A stretch of DNA of 64,000 bases from a virus (IMGVR_UViG_3300037067_016568:32001-96000); one strand, 5' to 3'. Counted from the first letter of the stretch, positions 24-49,548 are shown. Notes: generated from the sequence alone by a model not told the origin. Numbers and translations are program-made.

Positions 24-255
24 CCTGTAGTTACCTGGGAACGAACGCTATTCTCCATTCTATTCCGACCACTCCAGATGCAAGTTCTCCTGTAGTTACC
101 TGGGAACGAACGCTATTCTCCATTGATGCCGACCATTCGCTTTCGCAAGAGAACCTGTAGTTACCTGGGAACGAACGCTATTCTCCATTGCCGCTCATCA
201 GGGATGATGTTTTTGGGTACCTGTAGTTACCTGGGAACGAACGCTATTCTCCATT
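24..255 (-). CRISPR. CRISPR array 1: 4 identical 36-nt repeats, 3 full spacers of 29-30 nt; probably continues left of the window
   Basis: cctgtagttacctgggaacgaacgctattctccatt at 24-59, 89-124, 154-189, 220-255 with unique spacers. Minus orientation inferred from anti-repeat G-U wobbles, promoter motifs and gene direction. Confidence 0.95.
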
Positions 256-281
256 ACGCTATTAGGTGGTTCCCGGCACCT
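256..281 (-). promoter_or_regulatory. Conserved array-leader hairpin element (copy 1)
   Basis: taggtggttcccggcacct is identical at 263-281 and 1814-1832; stem AGGTG/CACCT; abuts the first repeat. Confidence 0.6.
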
Positions 282-807
282 TATCTTTCTGCACAGCCTC
301 GGTAGCGATGGCGTATTGCAGCTTAACATAACTCGAAGCTAATATCAGAAGCGTGTTGAGGTTAACGGTGATTTTCTCCTTGGGGCACTCTAAGTGCACC
401 AGTATCTCATCATTAACCTTTCGGCCTTTTATCTCAACCGCCCCAATTTCATTATTCAAAACCTTGCCGTTGATCCAAGCGGTGACACCATGACCGCTTG
501 GATCAGCCCAATCGTCCGACAGGCCAGCAGCCGCCATGAAAGCCAAAAGGCTTTTGCCCTCTGGCGATCGTGCCAAACTAGAAGACATTCCAGAGGTCTT
601 TGGAAGCCTTATTGTTATATCTCGCTCCACAGGCGTTTCGTCGTCTTCGAATTTGACAACCCACACTTCTGACGGCGGATTCGATGTATGACAAAGACGA
701 ACTAACGACACAAGTTGTGCCTTGCCTTCGAGTTCTAGATGTTCACTGGGAGTCTGTTGCTTCTTGTAGACGGAGCACCAATCTCCACGCCTCAAAACTG
801 ATTTCAC
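262..807 (-). CDS. Hypothetical protein (181 aa); stop codon lies in the array 1 leader
   Basis: ORF with GTG start, G-rich SD-like sequence and a promoter-like motif at 873-886. Confidence 0.7.
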   Translation of the reverse strand: MKSVLRRGDWCSVYKKQQTPSEHLELEGKAQLVSLVRLCHTSNPPSEVWVVKFEDDETPVERDITIRLPKTSGMSSSLARSPEGKSLLAFMAAAGLSDDWADPSGHGVTAWINGKVLNNEIGAVEIKGRKVNDEILVHLECPKEKITVNLNTLLILASSYVKLQYAIATEAVQKDKVPGTT

Positions 808-894
808 TTTACTAGTCCCCCCTGTAGTCCTGTCCCTGAATCTCGCAATTAAATCTCTGCGCTGTGATACCTTTTTATAGCTCGACGGATGTGG

Positions 895-1440
895 TTAATT
901 AGCTTCGAGTTCGGCAATCCGTGTTTGAAGTTCGGCAATCCGTGTTTGAAGTTCGGCAATTCGTGCTCGAAGCGCCTCATTCTCCGCTTCCAGGGTCTTA
1001 ATACGCGCCAAAAGCTGGTCCTGGACCGCCTGCATTGACGCCTTGATTTTGCGAGCTTCCTTATATGGATCAGCTGGCTTGGCCCGGCGACGACTACGTG
1101 GGGCGTCGGATTTCGTTTTGGCGAGCATGCCGTTATACATGTCGCGAAGCTTACCATTCTTCCATTGATATTCTTCCGGATAGTGCTTGAGCATCATCCG
1201 TAATTCGGAGAAGGTCAAGCAAAGGTCGATGACATACTCATCCAAGATGGCCAAGAGTTTGTTGTTGTCCAAGATCTCATTGTCGGCCCGAAAATCTGGA
1301 TCTTCATAGACGCTGTTCAGCAGAGTTGTCCGCCGATAGGCGTTGTGGCCGCTTGACTGCTGTAGCTTCCGGACTTGCTGTAAGAGCTTCTTGTACTGCT
1401 TTTCGCAGCGTGGCTGGGTTGGTGTGGTCGACCTCATCAA
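895..1440 (-). CDS. Hypothetical protein with C-terminal coiled coil
   Basis: AAGGAG RBS upstream; heptad repeat RIAELQT at the C-terminus. Confidence 0.8.
   Translation of the reverse strand: MMRSTTPTQPRCEKQYKKLLQQVRKLQQSSGHNAYRRTTLLNSVYEDPDFRADNEILDNNKLLAILDEYVIDLCLTFSELRMMLKHYPEEYQWKNGKLRDMYNGMLAKTKSDAPRSRRRAKPADPYKEARKIKASMQAVQDQLLARIKTLEAENEALRARIAELQTRIAELQTRIAELEAN
909..965. repeat. 21-nt tandem repeat (about 2.7 copies) encoding the heptad RIAELQT
   Basis: gttcggcaatccgtgtttgaa at 909-929 and 930-950, partial copy from 951. Confidence 0.9.
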
Positions 1441-1560
1441 TAGTTCTCCTTAGTCTTTTATGAAAAGCTGATAGTTGCGCACATTGACGACAACAAAATT
1501 TCTTGTTGCCGTTCAATGGCGTCTTACATATTGGACATTCCCCCTGTCCTGTAGTCCTGG

Positions 1561-1806
1561 CCTGTAGTCCTGTAGTTACCTGGGAACGAACGCTATTCTC
1601 CATTTTCGGCATCGGTGATCTCCCTGTAGTCCTGTAGTTACCTGGGAACGAACGCTATTCTCCATTTGCGGTTCTGTTCAGCGAGGAGGCTGTGGCCCTG
1701 TAGTCCTGTAGTTACCTGGGAACGAACGCTATTCTCTATTGCGACGTGCCATTACCGAATGCGATCTATGCCTGTAGTTACCTGGGAACAAACGTAATCC
1801 CACATT
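1561..1806 (-). CRISPR. CRISPR array 2: 4 repeats, 3 spacers; three repeats carry an extra 8-nt cctgtagt duplication
   Basis: Repeats at 1569-1604, 1631-1666, 1705-1740 (one mismatch) and 1771-1806 (degenerate); cctgtagt at 1561, 1623, 1697; unique spacers of 18, 30 and 30 nt. Confidence 0.93.
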
Positions 1807-1832
1807 TCGCTTTTAGGTGGTTCCCGGCACCT
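1807..1832 (-). promoter_or_regulatory. Conserved array-leader hairpin element (copy 2)
   Basis: Same 19-nt core as 263-281, at the same distance from the repeat. Confidence 0.6.
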
Positions 1833-1844
1833 AAATATGTCCCC

Positions 1845-2147
1845 TTAGTCCGGCAGCCTGAAAATATTAACCCATCTTCCATAGATTTTTGTTTTGCGCT
1901 TCACCAATTCGCCCGGCGTTCTGGCTAACGCCGCCATCACGCGATCTGATGTTTTCGTACATTCGTGCGGCCATCCTAGACGTTCAGCTATTAGATGTAA
2001 CAGCCCCTCATCACCAAACATGACAGCTGGGTTGTCTGTTTCTCTCAACACTTCAACGGCAGCATCGCATACTCGCATTATAGCTATGTATTCTGTAGTC
2101 GTATCCCAAATGGCGGTGTCAATTGATGAAAAAGAATATAAATGCAA
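1845..2147 (-). CDS. Hypothetical protein (start uncertain)
   Basis: ORF co-oriented with neighbours, ending just before the array 2 leader. Confidence 0.55.
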   Translation of the reverse strand: MHLYSFSSIDTAIWDTTTEYIAIMRVCDAAVEVLRETDNPAVMFGDEGLLHLIAERLGWPHECTKTSDRVMAALARTPGELVKRKTKIYGRWVNIFRLPD

Positions 2148-2171
2148 AATATTTCTGCTGCAAATGTCAAG

Positions 2172-2384
2172 CTAAATAATACAAGTGATAGAAACGTCGA
2201 ATGCGATTGATATAGTCAAGCAGATCCAAAAAGCCAGCATGCTACAAGCAATTGGCGTAAGGGGACATAACGTTTCAGCTAGTGCAAATGGCTTTATCTG
2301 GAATAGCACATACCAAATATTGCCGATAATCGGAGCAACAAATGGCGGAATAAGCAACCAGATTAATTTGTCTATCTTGCTCAT
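2172..2384 (-). CDS. Small membrane protein (2 predicted TM segments)
   Basis: Two hydrophobic stretches; TGTATAAT-like -10 box upstream (about 2394-2402). Confidence 0.55.
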   Translation of the reverse strand: MSKIDKLIWLLIPPFVAPIIGNIWYVLFQIKPFALAETLCPLTPIACSMLAFWICLTISIAFDVSITCII

Positions 2385-2457
2385 CTATATCACTATTATA
2401 CATCACTAAGAAGAAGCTGTCAAGCTCCCATCTGGCTACCCCGCATTCCGCCATGGA

Positions 2458-3600
2458 TTATCTGTTGATTGTTACGTCGATATCGATCTTATTACATGCC
2501 CGTTGGATCAACGATTGCATTTGTCGCCAATCCCATCGAGTCGTTTCAGTGTTGCCAATGCGTCCTGCATATTCTAAATAGTAATCCGCAGGAGGAGCAA
2601 AGATAACAAGATGACCGATGCCATTTGTTGCCAGTAATCTTGTCACATCATTGGCAAGGTGGGTGCTCCAGGTTTTGATGAAATCACGCCACCGCCGCTC
2701 ATATTTCGCCTTGTCTGCAGCCGAAATATATTTCCTGGTCTTCTTACTCTCTTGAATATCCAAGGTATTTCGCGTGTGTTCAACATCCTCGCCGCGACGA
2801 AGGCGGAATATGGTTTTACCATTGAATCGGAAGGAGAATGGGCGACGTTGCGCCGCTAACAGAAATGCCGTCTTATTCTTGTCAAGCGGTACTTTCACCT
2901 TGGGAATAGAATGGCAAGGATAAGCAATTAATCTACCGTCGCGTTCCTTCAAGTCGAGTCCCTTTAAATCCCATTCACCCGCTGCAATTTTCCACAGCAT
3001 ATCGCGGACAGAATGTAGCCTATAGCTTTTGGTCTTAATGATGAATGTCATCAAACCATAGCCGTCGACGTTGACCTCAAGCTTCCAATCTTCATTCTTG
3101 CTCTGCGGAACGATGATTCGGCAGTCACGTTTATGAAACGGAATGCTACTTCGTTGAGACGACTGTAGGAGACCTCCTCGGCCCAAAAGGACTGTTATCC
3201 AGCGAGGATAAGCCGACTTATACCCATGTTTCTGCAGTATTCTCAACGCTTTCTCGGTTGCTAGCTTACAGTGCTTGTTCATCGAGGGATATGTAGCAGA
3301 CATGATTTCGTCAAGCTGCTGAGCCATTTCGGTACTGCATGGATCGACAGGGCACCGCGTACGGGGGCCAACGCGAGTCTCAGGCTCGTAAAGCCAGCGG
3401 CGATCTTGTTCTGCCCATTCACGAACGAGAAGATGATTGCCAGCTTCAAAATGAATTCGCAACCATGCTGACATAAAATCGTTGACGATTCTCTGAATAT
3501 CAGAAGCAAGAGTGCCGATGTACTTTTTGTGTGACTTATAGTCATCGTCACCGCCAAGTAAACTGATTCGCTTGTTCTTAACAACTCGAAAGTCGGCCAT
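2458..3600 (-). CDS. Cas12f/TnpB-like protein B, predicted nuclease-dead and C-terminally truncated (380 aa)
   Basis: Paralog of 3735-5096. RuvC-I position reads TAFLLAA (no Asp), RuvC-II reads LVIFAPP (no Glu). W-D-W-x-x-MQ helix then IDVTINR-stop; no Zn finger or RuvC-III; adjacent to CRISPR arrays. Confidence 0.75.
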   Translation of the reverse strand: MADFRVVKNKRISLLGGDDDYKSHKKYIGTLASDIQRIVNDFMSAWLRIHFEAGNHLLVREWAEQDRRWLYEPETRVGPRTRCPVDPCSTEMAQQLDEIMSATYPSMNKHCKLATEKALRILQKHGYKSAYPRWITVLLGRGGLLQSSQRSSIPFHKRDCRIIVPQSKNEDWKLEVNVDGYGLMTFIIKTKSYRLHSVRDMLWKIAAGEWDLKGLDLKERDGRLIAYPCHSIPKVKVPLDKNKTAFLLAAQRRPFSFRFNGKTIFRLRRGEDVEHTRNTLDIQESKKTRKYISAADKAKYERRWRDFIKTWSTHLANDVTRLLATNGIGHLVIFAPPADYYLEYAGRIGNTETTRWDWRQMQSLIQRACNKIDIDVTINR

Positions 3601-3613
3601 ATCGTCCTCTGTA

Positions 3614-3710
3614 GGTTAAAAAAGGTAACTCTGGCGAGAGCTAACACGGTACGGAATGCCCGCAGCTATTCTCGCCTTCGAGACGTACAGGACGCCTCAA
3701 TTAGTGATTC
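3614..3710 (-). ncRNA. Putative tracr/scout-like RNA, copy 1
   Basis: 74 nt (3625-3698) identical to 5575-5648. Hairpin GAGGCGU-CCUGU-ACGUCUC, second stem GGCGAG/CUCGCC, 3' AGUUACCU then U-tract; complementary to repeat 3' end; TGCTATAA box at about 3718-3726. Confidence 0.75.
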
Positions 3711-3734
3711 TGCAAACTTATAGCACAAAAACAA

Positions 3735-5096
3735 TTATCGATTAACTTCTTTTTTACGGGGCTTACCTCCTTGCCTAGCGATTACTTTCATCCCGGCTGC
3801 TGCTCCAACCGCTTCCAACTGCTGCTGCATGTGGTACCAATCCCAGGCCGTCGATTCATTACGGCCAATTTTTCCGACATTAGAGAGATAACGAGTATCT
3901 CGCCATTTACCGGTTGGCTGATATGTTACCAGTTGACCAACGCCCGCTTTAACACAGCGACCTATAACCTCTGCGGCCCAAGTGTTGTTGAAGGTTTTGG
4001 TCTGATTACGCCAATTGCGTTCCGACTTTCGCCGCCAGTTATGGACTTTACGACCATGGTTTTTACGCGCACTAGATGCATATTTGTACGATTCGCTTTT
4101 ACCGAACCGTTGAAGCGTCAAAGAACGACGAGCATGTTTAATGTGCCTGCAGCTTCGCAGTTTCATATGTGTCTTACCATCAATGCGAAGCATCACGCCA
4201 TGATATCGACCACCTGATACGACAGCCGTTTTCTTGCTATCAGAGGGGGCAACCACACCGGGCATCAAATAGCAGATATCCGCATACCACTTGCCGGTGT
4301 TTTCACACTTAATGATCTGCGAAGTGCCGAAAATGTATTCGCCAGACGTAATTTTCCACAACACCTTGCGAATAGGTGCTAAATGACGCCCGCCAGTCCG
4401 AAGTTTGAAAACCATGGGGCGTAGAGTTCTTTGGCCATCTACTTTTTCGTAACGAACAATCAACTTCCAAGGGTCATTATTACTTTTAGGGACGACGAAG
4501 TTGCTGTTAGCGGTGTAGAATGGAACCGGTTGTGGTCTGGAAAATTGTGAATATTCTCCATATCCACATAGGATCATAAACCAGCGCTTATATTTAGACT
4601 TCGTGGCCGGTGTGGAGAGGAGCGTACTACTAAGCCGCCTAGAAACAATACCAATCGGTTTAGTCCCTAAATTGCAGTGTTGAGTAGTCAGGCGTTTATA
4701 GATCTCATTCGCCATCTTGTTAGAATATGGCTGAACGGGGCATTTTGCACGTGGAGGGATTTTCACGTCGAAAGAGGGGAGTAACTCCTTCTTTCCTTTT
4801 CGCTTCTGAGCTTTCTGAGCCTTGTCCAATTCGCCGTATTTCTGTGCCCATTCCTTATCTTCTTGTATCCATTTACGAAGAGCAGTGGGAGAGCCAGCTT
4901 CAAGATGCAAGCTAAACCACTGACTATGAAAATCATTTGCGATTTGCTGCATTTGAAGCGATATCTTGGCGAGACGTTCTTTTTCCTCTGCAAAGCCGTC
5001 GTCAATACCACATAGCTGGACGCGAATAATCTTCGTAAGTCCTTCTGGCTTCTTTTTACGTGGTTTCTTTTCTGCCGGTTTCTTCAATTTACTCAC
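3735..5096 (-). CDS. Cas12f/TnpB-like protein A, predicted nuclease-dead and C-terminally truncated (453 aa)
   Basis: Basic protein with TKIIRVQL WED-like start and KWYADICY strand. RuvC-I reads TAVVSGG (no Asp); Arg/Lys-rich bridge helix; RuvC-II reads LVTYQP (no Glu); WDWYHMQQQLE..GMKV then ends; AGGAG RBS. Confidence 0.8.
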   Translation of the reverse strand: MSKLKKPAEKKPRKKKPEGLTKIIRVQLCGIDDGFAEEKERLAKISLQMQQIANDFHSQWFSLHLEAGSPTALRKWIQEDKEWAQKYGELDKAQKAQKRKGKKELLPSFDVKIPPRAKCPVQPYSNKMANEIYKRLTTQHCNLGTKPIGIVSRRLSSTLLSTPATKSKYKRWFMILCGYGEYSQFSRPQPVPFYTANSNFVVPKSNNDPWKLIVRYEKVDGQRTLRPMVFKLRTGGRHLAPIRKVLWKITSGEYIFGTSQIIKCENTGKWYADICYLMPGVVAPSDSKKTAVVSGGRYHGVMLRIDGKTHMKLRSCRHIKHARRSLTLQRFGKSESYKYASSARKNHGRKVHNWRRKSERNWRNQTKTFNNTWAAEVIGRCVKAGVGQLVTYQPTGKWRDTRYLSNVGKIGRNESTAWDWYHMQQQLEAVGAAAGMKVIARQGGKPRKKEVNR

Positions 5097-5135
5097 TATA
5101 GTCTCCTACACAAAATAAGCGGCTTTATTCAGGGG

Positions 5136-5552
5136 CCTGTAGTCCTGTAGTCACCTGGGAACGAACGCTATTCAACATTCACATCGGGCTTGTAGTCAAG
5201 CCTGTAGTTACCTGGGAACGAACGCTATTCAACATTATTGAGACAACTTAATCAATGATGTCCTGTAGTCACCTGGGAACGAACGCTATTCAACATTTAA
5301 AACTGTCCCGTCCCGTTTTGATATAGCCTGTAGTCACCTGGGAACGAACGCTATTCAACATTTCAGAAGCTGTGAAAGCTTCATCTTGGCACGCCTGTAG
5401 TTACCTGGGAACGAACGCTATTCAACATTCCTCGGCGATTTCGTCGGCTGTAATTGGCACCTGTAGTCACCTGGGAACGAACGCTATTCAACATTTCCCT
5501 TCGTCGTGATAATCAGCCTGTAGTCACCTGGGAACGAACGCTATTCAACATT
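5136..5552 (-). CRISPR. CRISPR array 3: 7 repeats of a variant type (…tattcaacatt; gtcacc or gttacc), 6 spacers of 21-31 nt
   Basis: Repeats start at 5144, 5201, 5262, 5327, 5394, 5460, 5517; extra cctgtagt at 5136-5143. Confidence 0.96.
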
Positions 5553-5564
5553 ACGCTAACGGGT

Positions 5565-5660
5565 GGTTAAAAAAGTAACTCTGGCGAGAGCTAACACGGT
5601 ACGGAATGCCCGCAGCTATTCTCGCCTTCGAGACGTACAGGACGCCTCTATTTGGTGATC
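5565..5660 (-). ncRNA. Putative tracr/scout-like RNA, copy 2, directly upstream of array 3
   Basis: Duplicate of 3614-3698; 3' tail reads AGUUACUU (G-U wobble variant). Confidence 0.75.
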
Positions 5661-5727
5661 ATAGTTTATCTGGACTGTTTTAGCATCACATTAATAGGTA
5701 GTTAACTTCGATTAATCTCTTGTGAAG

Positions 5728-5914
5728 CCTGTAGTCCTGTAGTTACCTGGGAACGAACGCTATTCTCCATTTCGTCTCCATTTACATTTTGAACGAACGC
5801 TATTCTCCATTGACGCTAAGGGCCACGTTATCGGAGCACCTGTAGTTACCTGGGAACGAACGCTATTCTCCATTCGGCTGTTATGAAAAGATATTGCAGA
5901 TCCTCCTGTAGTTA
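5728..5914 (-). CRISPR. CRISPR array 4: 2 full and 2 partial repeats, 3 spacers
   Basis: Full repeats 5736-5771 and 5839-5874; partial repeats 5791-5811 and 5905-5914; extra cctgtagt at 5728-5735. Confidence 0.88.
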
Positions 5915-14200: not shown

Positions 14201-15442
14201 CCAGGTTTAAATATCCAACTGCCGCTAATGCACTTTCCGGGGACACGATTTGCCACCATTAATAAGTTAGAATCAGATTTTACACATCCCAAGTGGGCCG
14301 CTAAACCATGGGATGACAAATATAGCACAAGTTGCGGGCCTTATAATCAATCTTGTAAAAAACCAACATATCTCGACGCCAGATTAGTAGAGGGCACAGA
14401 TGGAGACACTCATTTGGTGTTCGATGATGTTCCTTTTACAATTGCTGCCAACGGCCTGCATCCAGACATACCAAGTTTTGGATCTCATCTGATTGATACA
14501 CAAAGCATATTCCACTCCGATGATGTAGTGCACGCTATCTATAGCACGCAGCCAATTGGAAATCCGGCTATATCATTAGAAAATATGTATCCTCCATCAC
14601 GAACATACACAACAGGCAAGGCTGATTATACGGTAGGTGGCGTCGAATGGATGTTCGGATATGTTTTTGATAGCATTCCGACAATCACTATTGGCCTAGA
14701 ATTGAAAAACTTAGCAGACAATATTTATACATTGTCTGCTAAAATCATAAGCGTTTCTGCGACTGCTGTGGTCATTAAAGTCTATAAAGCAGTCTTAGAT
14801 CTACCCGCTGATATCGTTTTTAGTGAATGCGCAGCTGGCGATGTTGTAGTCCACATTATGGCATCAGTGGCCGACACCATTATTAATACTACTGATTCGC
14901 CATTGTTCTCAACAGCTGCGTTATGCCACGACACTGTGCCATACTATATTGATTATATAGACGGCTATCCTGCGTCTTTTGGATATCAGACATATGAAGA
15001 TGATGACTTTGATCGCGACGGGACCAGAACAGAATTATTTAATGAATTGGATATTGATAGGTCCGTCCCGACAGGGACAGAAGTATTATTCTATTTCATA
15101 AGTGGAATACAATATCAAAAGGGATATCGCGTAGATTGCAACTGCGCAGCCTTGACTTGCGATGGCGGTACATCACCAACAGTAGAAATAAATGTCTTAC
15201 AATGCTCTATCGACAATTATAGGACAGACGCTCTGCCTTTTGAATTTTCTGATGGCATTGTCCGATATGGTTATGATTATAACCCCGATCAGGTGATAAC
15301 TGATATAACCCTAGATGCGCAAGAAGAAATTGGAGTCCATGATTTGGCTTTTGACGGTCAAATCATATGGGACGACGAGCGACAAGAATATCGTCAAATA
15401 AACATGCTCGAACTCTGTACTGGATTCCCAACTTGCATATAA
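11225..15442 (+). CDS. Large baseplate wedge / tail-associated structural protein
   Basis: P2 gpI-like segment YLSFLLGLDLP..LRKTMLRNVVRLQQLKGSRNAIYDLFELFGY; beta-rich GTNTTF module. Confidence 0.65.
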   Translation: MQTNPHIPVFLLLPVNNNRTAYRPFNLPMVLMETDRRDLSGASIPNSGVIVQNCDCGGDVECECMGVKTTTCNEYCNGAAIRIIIEDVPHKALVAGQIPIGLMSPDSEIYAKNVSMSEMIDRMIHPELQTFFRVTGIDSDGKQILTQIEYTEAVGGDLMQYTTASGSVGNLTYYPTANYYDLSDIAIETEHLPPDWYNLTYQAEYYARVESKSTPGQLNCIDPTRKATSIYRFRLNHPGQVMQETVNLTPAPYMTNDQKSVDTTIEFYRPFTDALQDIFDEQYLLGSVNWVDFITPQFVPYLSFLLGLDLPYFPQSLYSLRKTMLRNVVRLQQLKGSRNAIYDLFELFGYIIYINKLYWSSDGKRLIRPGEKLPPAYADQEIQIEKVCQIEPVLAGYNKSGFGELTVPLLYRPTYTEELQGIVNVVEGGDVIINAYLIRKNAYGSGTVSTTKTTELVGTNTTFLTDFSIGDTITVSGETARVVATITDDTHLTVTTAFQNTTTDISYTYISKTYKKLEEISIASQECEMPIIPTDGLDSWSQVVIDKSASYANPDEDVSTGDQPPFIHTGVRIDRKANLLYLTFNGAIQFDDKYGLQGVNAPNSEMLLYAFAIYSHEELAVPDQIKNYYSNRFDIQLLTKDGEQIGGDVLEFLIDYLFKIKAFHSLLHTLIYHANLNETYQVTPFCVGGDLEQRYDIDAGKLQVPPAILPQVPVGECSVDPSDLGYKPEDIALREKILTNLPEEFQAWVDVDWYMKIKPAIGATGPIYIERDVTQIGDERLAPTPAKDNTDCKFTYRGQDRLVPADTEEIDDVVYDPTPFANDQSVASQSNMHLSPITNGVHGVFYPTGAEATTNSDKAEYGPYEIELSINPNTFCELDGISDYCYKGRVEDEILHKMTLVSTEQYQASLCQLSFGHGIYYAFPATSELTNSIQGAALKQSYNANLPPDNNSFLGRLLRAFDTVQGENIHYTDRPYLTESVSGEQNLLALQRPGLNIQLPLMHFPGTRFATINKLESDFTHPKWAAKPWDDKYSTSCGPYNQSCKKPTYLDARLVEGTDGDTHLVFDDVPFTIAANGLHPDIPSFGSHLIDTQSIFHSDDVVHAIYSTQPIGNPAISLENMYPPSRTYTTGKADYTVGGVEWMFGYVFDSIPTITIGLELKNLADNIYTLSAKIISVSATAVVIKVYKAVLDLPADIVFSECAAGDVVVHIMASVADTIINTTDSPLFSTAALCHDTVPYYIDYIDGYPASFGYQTYEDDDFDRDGTRTELFNELDIDRSVPTGTEVLFYFISGIQYQKGYRVDCNCAALTCDGGTSPTVEINVLQCSIDNYRTDALPFEFSDGIVRYGYDYNPDQVITDITLDAQEEIGVHDLAFDGQIIWDDERQEYRQINMLELCTGFPTCI

Positions 15443-16446: not shown

Positions 16447-16797
16447 ATTAAATCCGCATCGCAATTCCCTGTAAATCTAATAATTCCCGTCACCACAACA
16501 GAAGAAGAACAAATAGTTGAAAAAATTCTGTCCGATGCTCTACCCAATTACGATTTCTTGTCCAAAATCTATTATGAAAACCCGGACGAGACTCAACGGG
16601 CACGTCTCTTGATAAATGGAGAAGAAGTCAAAAGAGGAACCGTTGAACAAATGAAAGAAGCTTTCACTTTACAATCGAGCATCAACTCTAAAGCTAATAT
16701 TATCGTTCAAGAGTGGCAAAAACAGCCTTTATCAAATAAATCAGCCGGATTCGTGACTGTTCAGTCTAGAATAGTCAAGGTATATTTTACAAACTAG
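16447..16797 (+). CDS. Hypothetical protein, possible ATT start
   Basis: AGGAGGT immediately upstream of in-frame ATT at 16447. Confidence 0.5.
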   Translation: MKSASQFPVNLIIPVTTTEEEQIVEKILSDALPNYDFLSKIYYENPDETQRARLLINGEEVKRGTVEQMKEAFTLQSSINSKANIIVQEWQKQPLSNKSAGFVTVQSRIVKVYFTN

Positions 16798-16808
16798 GTA
16801 ACTACAGG

Positions 16809-48615: not shown

Positions 48616-49548
48616 ATGGCCAATGCTAAAAAAAGAGGTCGTCGAGGACGCAGACAGTGGCAGCCGGAATATCGTGCTTCCGAGGAAAATCCGGCTCGCT
48701 TAATTGATGTGAATGAGCCTGGCCTTCCTGGAATACATAGTGTCAAGAAAACATCACCACTCCCAAAGGAATTTTGCTGGGGGCATATGCCAGAAGGAAA
48801 AACAATGTTGTCACAAACATTAGAGAACAAGCTAAATTGTGCATTAAAACCATTGATGTCACAGCTTGAGCTTGATAATGATAATACTAGACTGGCATTG
48901 GAAGAGATGATGGATATTGCCATTTCACCATGCCGCTTCGATAACAAAAAGCAATTCGCACGTTTCTTAACAGAAGGTGTTATACTAAACGTCAACAGAT
49001 TAGTCTCTCAAGGAATAGGGATTCCACAAGGCGAATATGTCTTATATAGCATAACTCCTGAAAAGGCAATGCTAGTTCCTACTTCTGAAGTTTCAGTTCA
49101 AGAAACTGACTTCAGTAAGTCTCCACAATCATTCGAAATCCACACTAGCAGATTATTGGGGTGCTGGAATAAAATCGAGGGTACTATAGTAGAAGACAAT
49201 GTTCCACCACGACGATTCGGACGTAAAGAAATAGAACAAACATCTACATCGAAATATAAAAGCGTGCCAGAGGTCGTATCTGCTCTAGAACGTGCTGGCA
49301 AAACACAAGAGGAAGTTGCGGATGAAATTGGTGTTCATCCATCTACAGTTAGCCGATACAAACGCGCTACCAGCCACAAAGGAGGGCGGGTACCGAGTTT
49401 AGGCGCAGCATTAAAGTTAGCAGACGCTACAGGCTCAAATATTGAAGCTATGTTCGGCAACGTTGAACCACCACAAAAACATAGACGAACTAGTGGAAGC
49501 GGTGGTGGCAGAAACCCTGCATATAGGCAGGGCAATAATTCTAACTAG
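48616..49548 (+). CDS. XRE-family HTH domain protein
   Basis: GKTQEEVADEIGVHPSTVSRY..PSLGAALKLADA. Confidence 0.8.
   Translation: MANAKKRGRRGRRQWQPEYRASEENPARLIDVNEPGLPGIHSVKKTSPLPKEFCWGHMPEGKTMLSQTLENKLNCALKPLMSQLELDNDNTRLALEEMMDIAISPCRFDNKKQFARFLTEGVILNVNRLVSQGIGIPQGEYVLYSITPEKAMLVPTSEVSVQETDFSKSPQSFEIHTSRLLGCWNKIEGTIVEDNVPPRRFGRKEIEQTSTSKYKSVPEVVSALERAGKTQEEVADEIGVHPSTVSRYKRATSHKGGRVPSLGAALKLADATGSNIEAMFGNVEPPQKHRRTSGSGGGRNPAYRQGNNSN

Follow-up and report, generated by a model that had tools for sequence, protein, structure and literature searches.

Naturally dead RNA-guided proteins, among them TldR, dCas12f-sigma-E, Cas12m and Cas12k, have each in turn brought to light a new way in which RNA guidance is used. 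Here we describe a viral locus that encodes two further proteins that are probably of this kind, dCas12f-A and dCas12f-B, together with CRISPR arrays and a duplicated structured RNA. It occupies positions 24 to 5,914 of a stretch of 64,000 nucleotides (nt), hereafter the window, which corresponds to bases 32001-96000 of the 184,768-bp IMG/VR virus record IMGVR_UViG_3300037067_016568 (G000; CheckV completeness about 51%). The locus probably represents a self-contained, phage-encoded derivative of the type V-F (Cas12f) systems that binds DNA under RNA guidance without cutting it.

By sequence, the closest described proteins are the type V-F nucleases AsCas12f, OsCas12f and SpCas12f1 (PDB 7wju, 8dzj, 8j12, 9nzq and 9i8y; profile E 3e-42 to 1e-31). 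The locus shares with them the fold, a 36-nt repeat, a guide placed 3' of the handle, a trans-activating CRISPR RNA (tracrRNA) pairing with the 3' end of the repeat, and a miniature protein, which is a dimer in their solved structures. Unlike them, it lacks the RuvC acids and the zinc ribbon, has no cas1, cas2 or cas4 that could be found, is carried by a huge phage, encodes a pair of diverged paralogues where those systems have a single gene, and comprises two extra conserved partner genes. The dCas12f-sigma-E systems (Hoffmann et al., Nature 2026, PMC13472631; PDB 9n9c) are likewise built on a dead, C-terminally truncated Cas12f and provide the best structural match (Z 22.1), although they are more distant by sequence (E 5e-18) than the AsCas12f group. 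They use a fused single guide RNA, have neither arrays nor tracrRNA and lie beside rpoE, whereas the phage record harbors five arrays and a separate tracrRNA, a tracr-handle-spacer fusion being present once, in the related locus L003. Sigma70_r2, the domain of their extracytoplasmic function (ECF) sigma partner, was not found in the 185-kb record.

Among other dead effectors, TldR also has an inactive RuvC, is in some cases carried by prophages and binds under RNA guidance to silence genes of the host (bioRxiv 10.1101/2023.11.30.569447), but it derives directly from TnpB and works with one omega-RNA-like guide located beside its gene, without arrays or tracrRNA; TnpB structures match the model of dCas12f-A much less closely, with a Foldseek E of about 1e-7, against 1e-20 for Cas12f. 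Cas12m (type V-M) is an array-associated type V effector of mobile elements that silences by binding without cutting, yet it measures about 600 amino acids (aa), keeps part of the RuvC site, has no tracrRNA and gives a much weaker structural match (Z 12-13). As for Cas12k and the CRISPR-associated transposons, no neighbouring open reading frame (ORF) had a Pfam match to the Tn7-like tnsB, tnsC or tniQ, no dedicated search having been made.

Inactivated Cas12f branches were listed in a survey of TnpB and Cas12 (PMC10691335), and the paper that characterised the sigma-E-linked dCas12f mentions in passing that a separate dCas12f cluster occurs in bacteria near CRISPR arrays, upstream of which lies a structured RNA, with a possible efflux-promoter target and a suggested role in repression (PMC13472631). 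That cluster (Extended Data Fig. 1a,b), set beside the locus here on the basis of its description, has in common with the phage system a dead truncated Cas12f beside arrays and a covarying structured RNA upstream of them. It is known from bioinformatics only, in bacterial genomes (a Chitinophagaceae metagenome-assembled genome), and nothing is said in the paper of carriage by a phage, of effectors in pairs or of partner genes. The initial annotation of the window had not recognised a dead pair with true spacer arrays on a large phage as a described configuration. This has to be narrowed, given that dead Cas12f near bacterial arrays had already been noted; the phage-borne version, the tandem pair and the partner genes were not found described in a full-text search of the literature.

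The two effectors, of 453 aa (A) and 380 aa (B), are paralogues sharing 30% identity (E 2e-61) and are encoded in tandem on the minus strand. Neither has a match in Pfam or PHROGs, and PADLOC assigns the 453-aa protein to Cas12u3 (E 2e-13) and Cas12f (E 2e-11), the last 60 or so profile positions remaining unmatched. A profile search over 1.84 billion representative proteins recovered 409 relatives of the family at E<=1e-3 and 187 at E<=1e-30, nearly all of 400-480 aa. The AlphaFold2 model of dCas12f-A computed from a 148-sequence alignment reached a mean predicted local distance difference test (pLDDT) of 93, superseding a run on nine sequences (pLDDT 58), and its top Foldseek match was AsCas12f (E 1e-20). 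With VIA-align, the model superposes end to end on the naturally dead dCas12f 9n9c with the Z score given above, and on AsCas12f with a Z of about 20-21, the last 30-40 residues of the latter staying unaligned. Against the PDB, the family profile similarly ranks AsCas12f first (E 3e-42), the sigma-E-type dCas12f reaching merely the value cited before. A confident Cas12f fold, with its WED-REC-RuvC core, is assigned to the two paralogues, which bears out the Cas12f/TnpB-like proteins proposed from the sequence.

What this fold has lost is every catalytic part. In the HMMER alignment, the position of AsCas12f Asp225, the mutated RuvC-I aspartate, is Ser294 in dCas12f-A, and none of 158 aligned family members has an aspartate in this column. 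The RuvC-II strand reads VYxQP across the 158 relatives (VTYQP in dCas12f-A), with no conserved acid, and a CxxC motif in the C-terminal tail is found in 0/158. Protein A ends before RuvC-III and the zinc ribbon and protein B stops at the same point; the latter also has no RuvC acidic residues and is devoid of the basic N-terminal tail of A. From the 158-member alignment, the whole family, A and B included, is therefore without the acids of RuvC-I, -II and -III and without the zinc ribbon, and the TNB domain (PF07282) was not found in the 185-kb record. The description of both proteins as nuclease-dead and truncated consequently stands.

Two related IMG/VR phages, G001 (122 kb) and G002 (364 kb, 100% complete according to CheckV), exhibit the same order of array, A gene, B gene and arrays, and G002 encodes exactly two dCas12f genes. 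A quick maximum-likelihood tree places the A clade and the B clade as sister groups (support 99), with the single-gene relatives outside and B on a longer branch, and both paralogues are intact in the three phages. This topology indicates a single duplication at the base of the phage lineage, after which both copies were retained. In its solved structures, Cas12f forms an asymmetric homodimer with a single guide RNA, and because of this an A/B heterodimer is the natural reading of the pair; the gene order and the tree suggest that such a heterodimer probably replaces the asymmetric homodimer of Cas12f.

The duplicated RNA is about 85 nt long (3619-3702 and 5569-5652, 98% identical) and folds into a 7-bp hairpin with the loop UCCUGUA, followed by a long second hairpin, the tail AGAGUUACCU and a U-run. 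A covariance model detects two copies in this record, three in G001, four in G002 and a single copy each, directly upstream of dCas12f, in the distant loci L008, L009 and L014. In the alignment, which was fitted to the covariance model, 98% of the cells are paired and compensatory changes affect 10/23 pairs, a level reached by none of 500 shuffles. The loop CCUGUA and the tail AGUUACCU jointly give the reverse complement of the 13 nt with which the repeat ends, and tail and repeat change together, as GTTACC/GGTAAC here, GTCACC/GGTGAC in G001 and G002, and GCCACCC/GGGTGGC in L009. Judged from this covarying structure and from an anti-repeat that changes in step with the repeat, the tracr-like RNA of the initial annotation is a tracrRNA whose anti-repeat is split. 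As in type V systems, the guide is located 3' of the handle; Rfam has no match for the tracrRNA or the repeats. In phage G001 (L003:11480-11600), one tracrRNA copy without the U-run is fused to the handle TGACTACAGG and a 28-nt spacer, a natural single-guide-like form; a fusion of this type was proposed as an evolutionary intermediate (PMC10691335).

All these components are read from the minus strand, in the order array 4, tracrRNA copy 2, array 3, dCas12f-A, tracrRNA copy 1, dCas12f-B, two small unconserved ORFs, array 2, a zinc-ribbon ORF, a coiled-coil gene, an ORF of 181 aa and array 1 (Table 1). The 36-nt repeat (AATGGAGAATAGCGTTCGTTCCCAGGTAACTACAGG when read on the minus strand) is present in 23 copies in the locus (24-5913) and in 27 in the whole record, all of them on this strand. 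The four arrays of a single repeat family reported initially are present in the window, with the correction that array 1 continues past its start (genome 31641-32255, 10 repeats, six of them beyond the window start) and that a fifth array stands about 86 kb from the locus (genome 123672-124054). The estimate of at least 15 complete guides was about right, 18 spacers being scored between repeats in the record in a three-genome tally, with lengths of 18-31 nt and most of 29-30 nt. The same 25-nt leader-like motif precedes arrays 1, 2 and 5, and array 3 has a shorter form of it.

Table 1. Features of the dCas12f locus; positions are those of the window.
Feature	Position	Strand	Remarks
CRISPR array 1, in-window part	24..255	-	4/10 repeats; extends past the window start to genome 31641
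Conserved leader-like motif GGTGCCGGGAACCACCTAATAGCGT	256..280	-	abuts first repeat of array 1
181-aa ORF, no assigned function	262..807	-	55% in G001; identical in strain variant L043
181-aa coiled-coil accessory protein	895..1440	-	coiled-coil Pfam matches; homologues beside dCas12f in L003, L004, L009, L014, and starting at the end of L008
Small zinc-ribbon ORF (CPIC...CCRQC)	1304..1543	-	homologues in L003, L004, L008, L009, L014
CRISPR array 2	1569..1806	-	4 repeats, leader-proximal one degenerate
Leader-like motif of array 2	1807..1831	-	
Sigma-70 promoter match TTGACA-17-TATAAT, perfect consensus	2395..2423	-	consensus match alone
dCas12f-B	2458..3600	-	380 aa, diverged paralogue
tracrRNA copy 1	3612..3706	-	between both effector genes; two hairpins, tail AGAGUUACCU, U-run
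dCas12f-A	3735..5096	-	453 aa, Cas12f fold
CRISPR array 3	5144..5552	-	7 copies of variant repeat AATGTTGAAT..., spacers 21-31 nt
tracrRNA copy 2	5562..5656	-	directly upstream of array 3
CRISPR array 4	5736..5913	-	truncated handle (5905-5913) and spacer, two full repeats, half repeat (5791-5811)

Evidence of spacer turnover comes from a metagenome contig (L043) that is a strain variant of this phage, with 93-99% identity. Its array 1 carries the same spacers in the same order and lacks the leader-proximal spacer alone, which indicates that acquisition was recent and polarised, at the leader end, and fixes the orientation of the array; one shared spacer of this array measures 21 nt in L043 and 18 nt here. 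In L046, a relative of the array-5 region, the spacers are wholly different. As first noted for the window, Cas1, Cas2 and Cas4 were searched and not found, there or in the whole 185-kb record, and neither they nor TNB were found in the complete 364-kb relative G002. Because cas1, cas2 and cas4 were not found in the phage, the simplest explanation is that the new spacers are presumably inserted by adaptation enzymes provided in trans. The repeat handle had no match in one genome for each of 185,579 GTDB species, and in metagenomes it was seen only in relatives of this phage, apart from one probable chance 19-mer in a coding region (L041/L042).

The arrays present some irregularities. In eight units, including the terminal repeats of arrays 2-5, the last 8 nt of the repeat (ACTACAGG) are doubled right after it (window 1569-1740, 5144-5179 and 5736-5771; genome 123672-123852), and array 1 ends with ATTACAGG. 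Three of the units with an extra ACTACAGG belong to array 2, whose spacers measure 30 and 18 nt once the 8-nt duplication is removed. Outside the arrays, a 27-nt motif formed by GTATTTTACAAACT and then the 13-nt crRNA (CRISPR RNA) handle AGGTAAYTACAGG occurs five times at gene boundaries of the genome (182-208, 3405-3431, 12782-12808 on the minus strand, 14304-14330 and 48782-48808, the last being window 16782-16808). One copy stands 24 nt before a ribosome-binding site and ATG, and for none of the copies do the 14 nt located downstream match the genome a second time above chance; this motif could serve as a promoter of the phage with its leader, or as a solo guide. Outside the window (genome 18570-18606), there is also a degenerate repeat that stands alone, followed by ACTACAAG, directly upstream of an ORF for a 125-aa zinc-finger protein that is unrelated to the zinc-ribbon ORF of the locus.

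Two small genes accompany the effectors. The zinc-ribbon ORF and the coiled-coil gene follow dCas12f in G000, G001, G002, L009 and L014, and a sixth locus, L008, encodes the zinc-ribbon ORF and, where its contig ends, the beginning of the coiled-coil gene, even though the effectors of L008, L009 and L014 share merely 28-36% or so identity with protein A. Such conservation makes both genes look like parts of the dCas12f system. The coiled-coil protein consists of an N-terminal domain, a basic region and a leucine-zipper-like C-terminal coiled coil, and no informative family was retrieved for it from Pfam (coiled-coil matches only), PHROGs or the ESM Atlas. The zinc-ribbon ORF overlaps the start of the coiled-coil gene in every locus (by 137 nt here), and, both here and in L009, its frame becomes open within the final repeat of the array before it. 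In the window this frame is open over 1304-1612, into the last repeat of array 2, which supplies an in-frame ATG (AATGGAG), and the same overlap of the two genes is seen in L008 and L009; a frameshift fusion or a translational coupling is possible. The idea that the zinc-ribbon ORF is a detached TNB of Cas12f was rejected, as PF07282 finds nothing and no RuvC-III motif follows it.

The perfect promoter consensus upstream of these genes faces array 2 and both partner genes. A homologue of the neighbouring 181-aa ORF without assigned function was not seen beside distant dCas12f genes. The locus L014 (7042-10510), on a 4.2-Mb bacterial contig, groups a dCas12f of 453 aa (29% identical) and both partner genes with a tracr-like RNA and, about 750 bp upstream, an ECF sigma gene; no CRISPR array was found within about 2 kb on either side of the dCas12f cluster. 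This locus may link the phage dCas12f family to the sigma-associated dCas12f systems. Elsewhere in the window, between 11225 and 63789, ten large ORFs (487-1405 aa) are encoded, seven of which have no Pfam or PHROG match, the three others presenting lectin-like or DUF domains typical of tail fibres, and no tRNA gene was found within the window.

Taken as an RNA-guided DNA-binding system, the locus would work as follows. The arrays would be transcribed on the minus strand, and the tracrRNA of about 85 nt would use its split anti-repeat to pair with the final 13 nt of each repeat, the loop CCUGUA with UACAGG and the 3' tail AGUUACCU with AGGUAACU. The resulting tracrRNA:crRNA duplex would load on a dCas12f dimer, probably the A/B heterodimer, and the complex would sit on complementary DNA as a roadblock or platform, probably with the zinc-ribbon and coiled-coil proteins. 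Binding would lead to the silencing, or some other control, of genes in the host or in competing mobile elements. Spacers continue to be gained at the leader end, presumably with enzymes provided in trans. A bolder version can be put forward as a tentative suggestion, in which A and B form an obligate heterodimer whose subunits are specialised for the two unequal positions and act, with the partner module, as a multiplexed gene controller updated by stealing the adaptation enzymes of the host, and switching off genes of host defence or of rivals during infection.

Several observations weigh against the main reading. No convincing protospacer was identified for any spacer in the sets searched. 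In the 185-kb record itself, spacer seed matches are no commoner than for shuffled spacers, and when 64 spacers of the three phages were compared with all three genomes, the longest matches, of 13-15 nt, were at chance level; the idea of sibling phages as targets was tested in this way and failed. Among INPHARED phages and PLSDB plasmids, the best matches had E values of 4e-4 to 10, were partly over repeat bases or in GC-rich sequence, and were judged to be chance; four spacers searched against IMG/VR and one against the GTDB species genomes returned nothing. Moreover, the spacers are irregular in length (18-31 nt) and the ACTACAGG duplication of many units is unexplained, so that some units could be decaying, and the heterodimer is deduced from the order of the genes and from the tree only. 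As the searches gave no protospacer, silencing of genes of the host or of competitors is something that we infer. The mean G+C of the spacers is higher than that of the phage (0.50 vs 0.44), which fits external targets and proves nothing. Regulation of the phage's own genes through long spacer matches was considered and rejected for the complete G002, where matches reach 13-15 nt at most.

Other roles may be envisaged for the same components. By analogy with the dCas12f that recruits sigma-E, the effectors may bring partner proteins to their targets, so that transcription is activated, or DNA is remodelled or tethered. The persistence of both partner genes beside effectors as divergent as those of L008, L009 and L014, the ECF sigma gene of the bacterial relative L014 and the identity of the structurally closest solved protein, itself a sigma-E recruiter (Z 22.1), are all in favor of such a role; nevertheless, no sigma70_r2 domain was found in this phage record, and the partners have no recognisable domain except the coiled coil, and we hold recruitment to be unlikely. 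A phage dead Cas9 with its own tracrRNA was proposed to sequester crRNAs (review, PMC11656645), and similarly the dead effectors and tracrRNA could soak up the crRNAs of a host Cas12f, or the phage arrays could flood a host effector with harmless guides. The absence of cas1, cas2 and cas4 implies a possible compatible adaptation system in the host, as such a decoy would have it, but the handle is missing from the GTDB species genomes searched, many distinct spacers would be needless, and the same gene set also exists in a 4.2-Mb bacterial contig; a decoy thus appears very unlikely.

It is also conceivable that targets are still destroyed, through a nuclease of the phage or the host recruited in trans to the bound site like Cas3 in type I systems. 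There is some room for it, as the function of the partner proteins is not assigned and half of the phage genome is missing according to CheckV, but the partners bear no nuclease motif and the complete relative G002 is without a TNB-bearing type V nuclease, which leaves this scenario very unlikely too and, if anything, a little more so than the decoy. Finally, the half repeats, truncated handles, degenerate terminal repeats and irregular spacer lengths of the arrays might be those of a captured V-F system of which only a decaying remnant without function is left. This would hardly agree with the 409 relatives at E<=1e-3, with a truncated form kept by 158/158 aligned members, with paralogues intact in three phages, or with a tracrRNA showing compensatory changes and a spacer gained recently, and we give it almost no credit. 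RNA-guided DNA binding without cutting, by a phage-encoded V-F derivative, therefore remains the probable role of the locus.

New here are the sister clades of A and B, the partner genes in six loci, the recent polarised acquisition of a spacer, and a system in which no cas1, cas2, cas4 or TNB nuclease was found. To the natural dead RNA-guided proteins, the locus adds a virus-carried system with true, still-growing spacer arrays, an effector split into two diverged subunits, and two uncharacterised partner proteins conserved from phages to a bacterial chromosome. The small size of its parts (380 and 453 aa, and an RNA of 85 nt) may make them of interest to tool builders. The A/B pair could show an asymmetric homodimer turning into a heterodimer, and the locus raises the question of how arrays without cas1, cas2 and cas4 gain spacers. 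Through it, one can ask directly how programmable DNA binding serves phages against their hosts or rivals.

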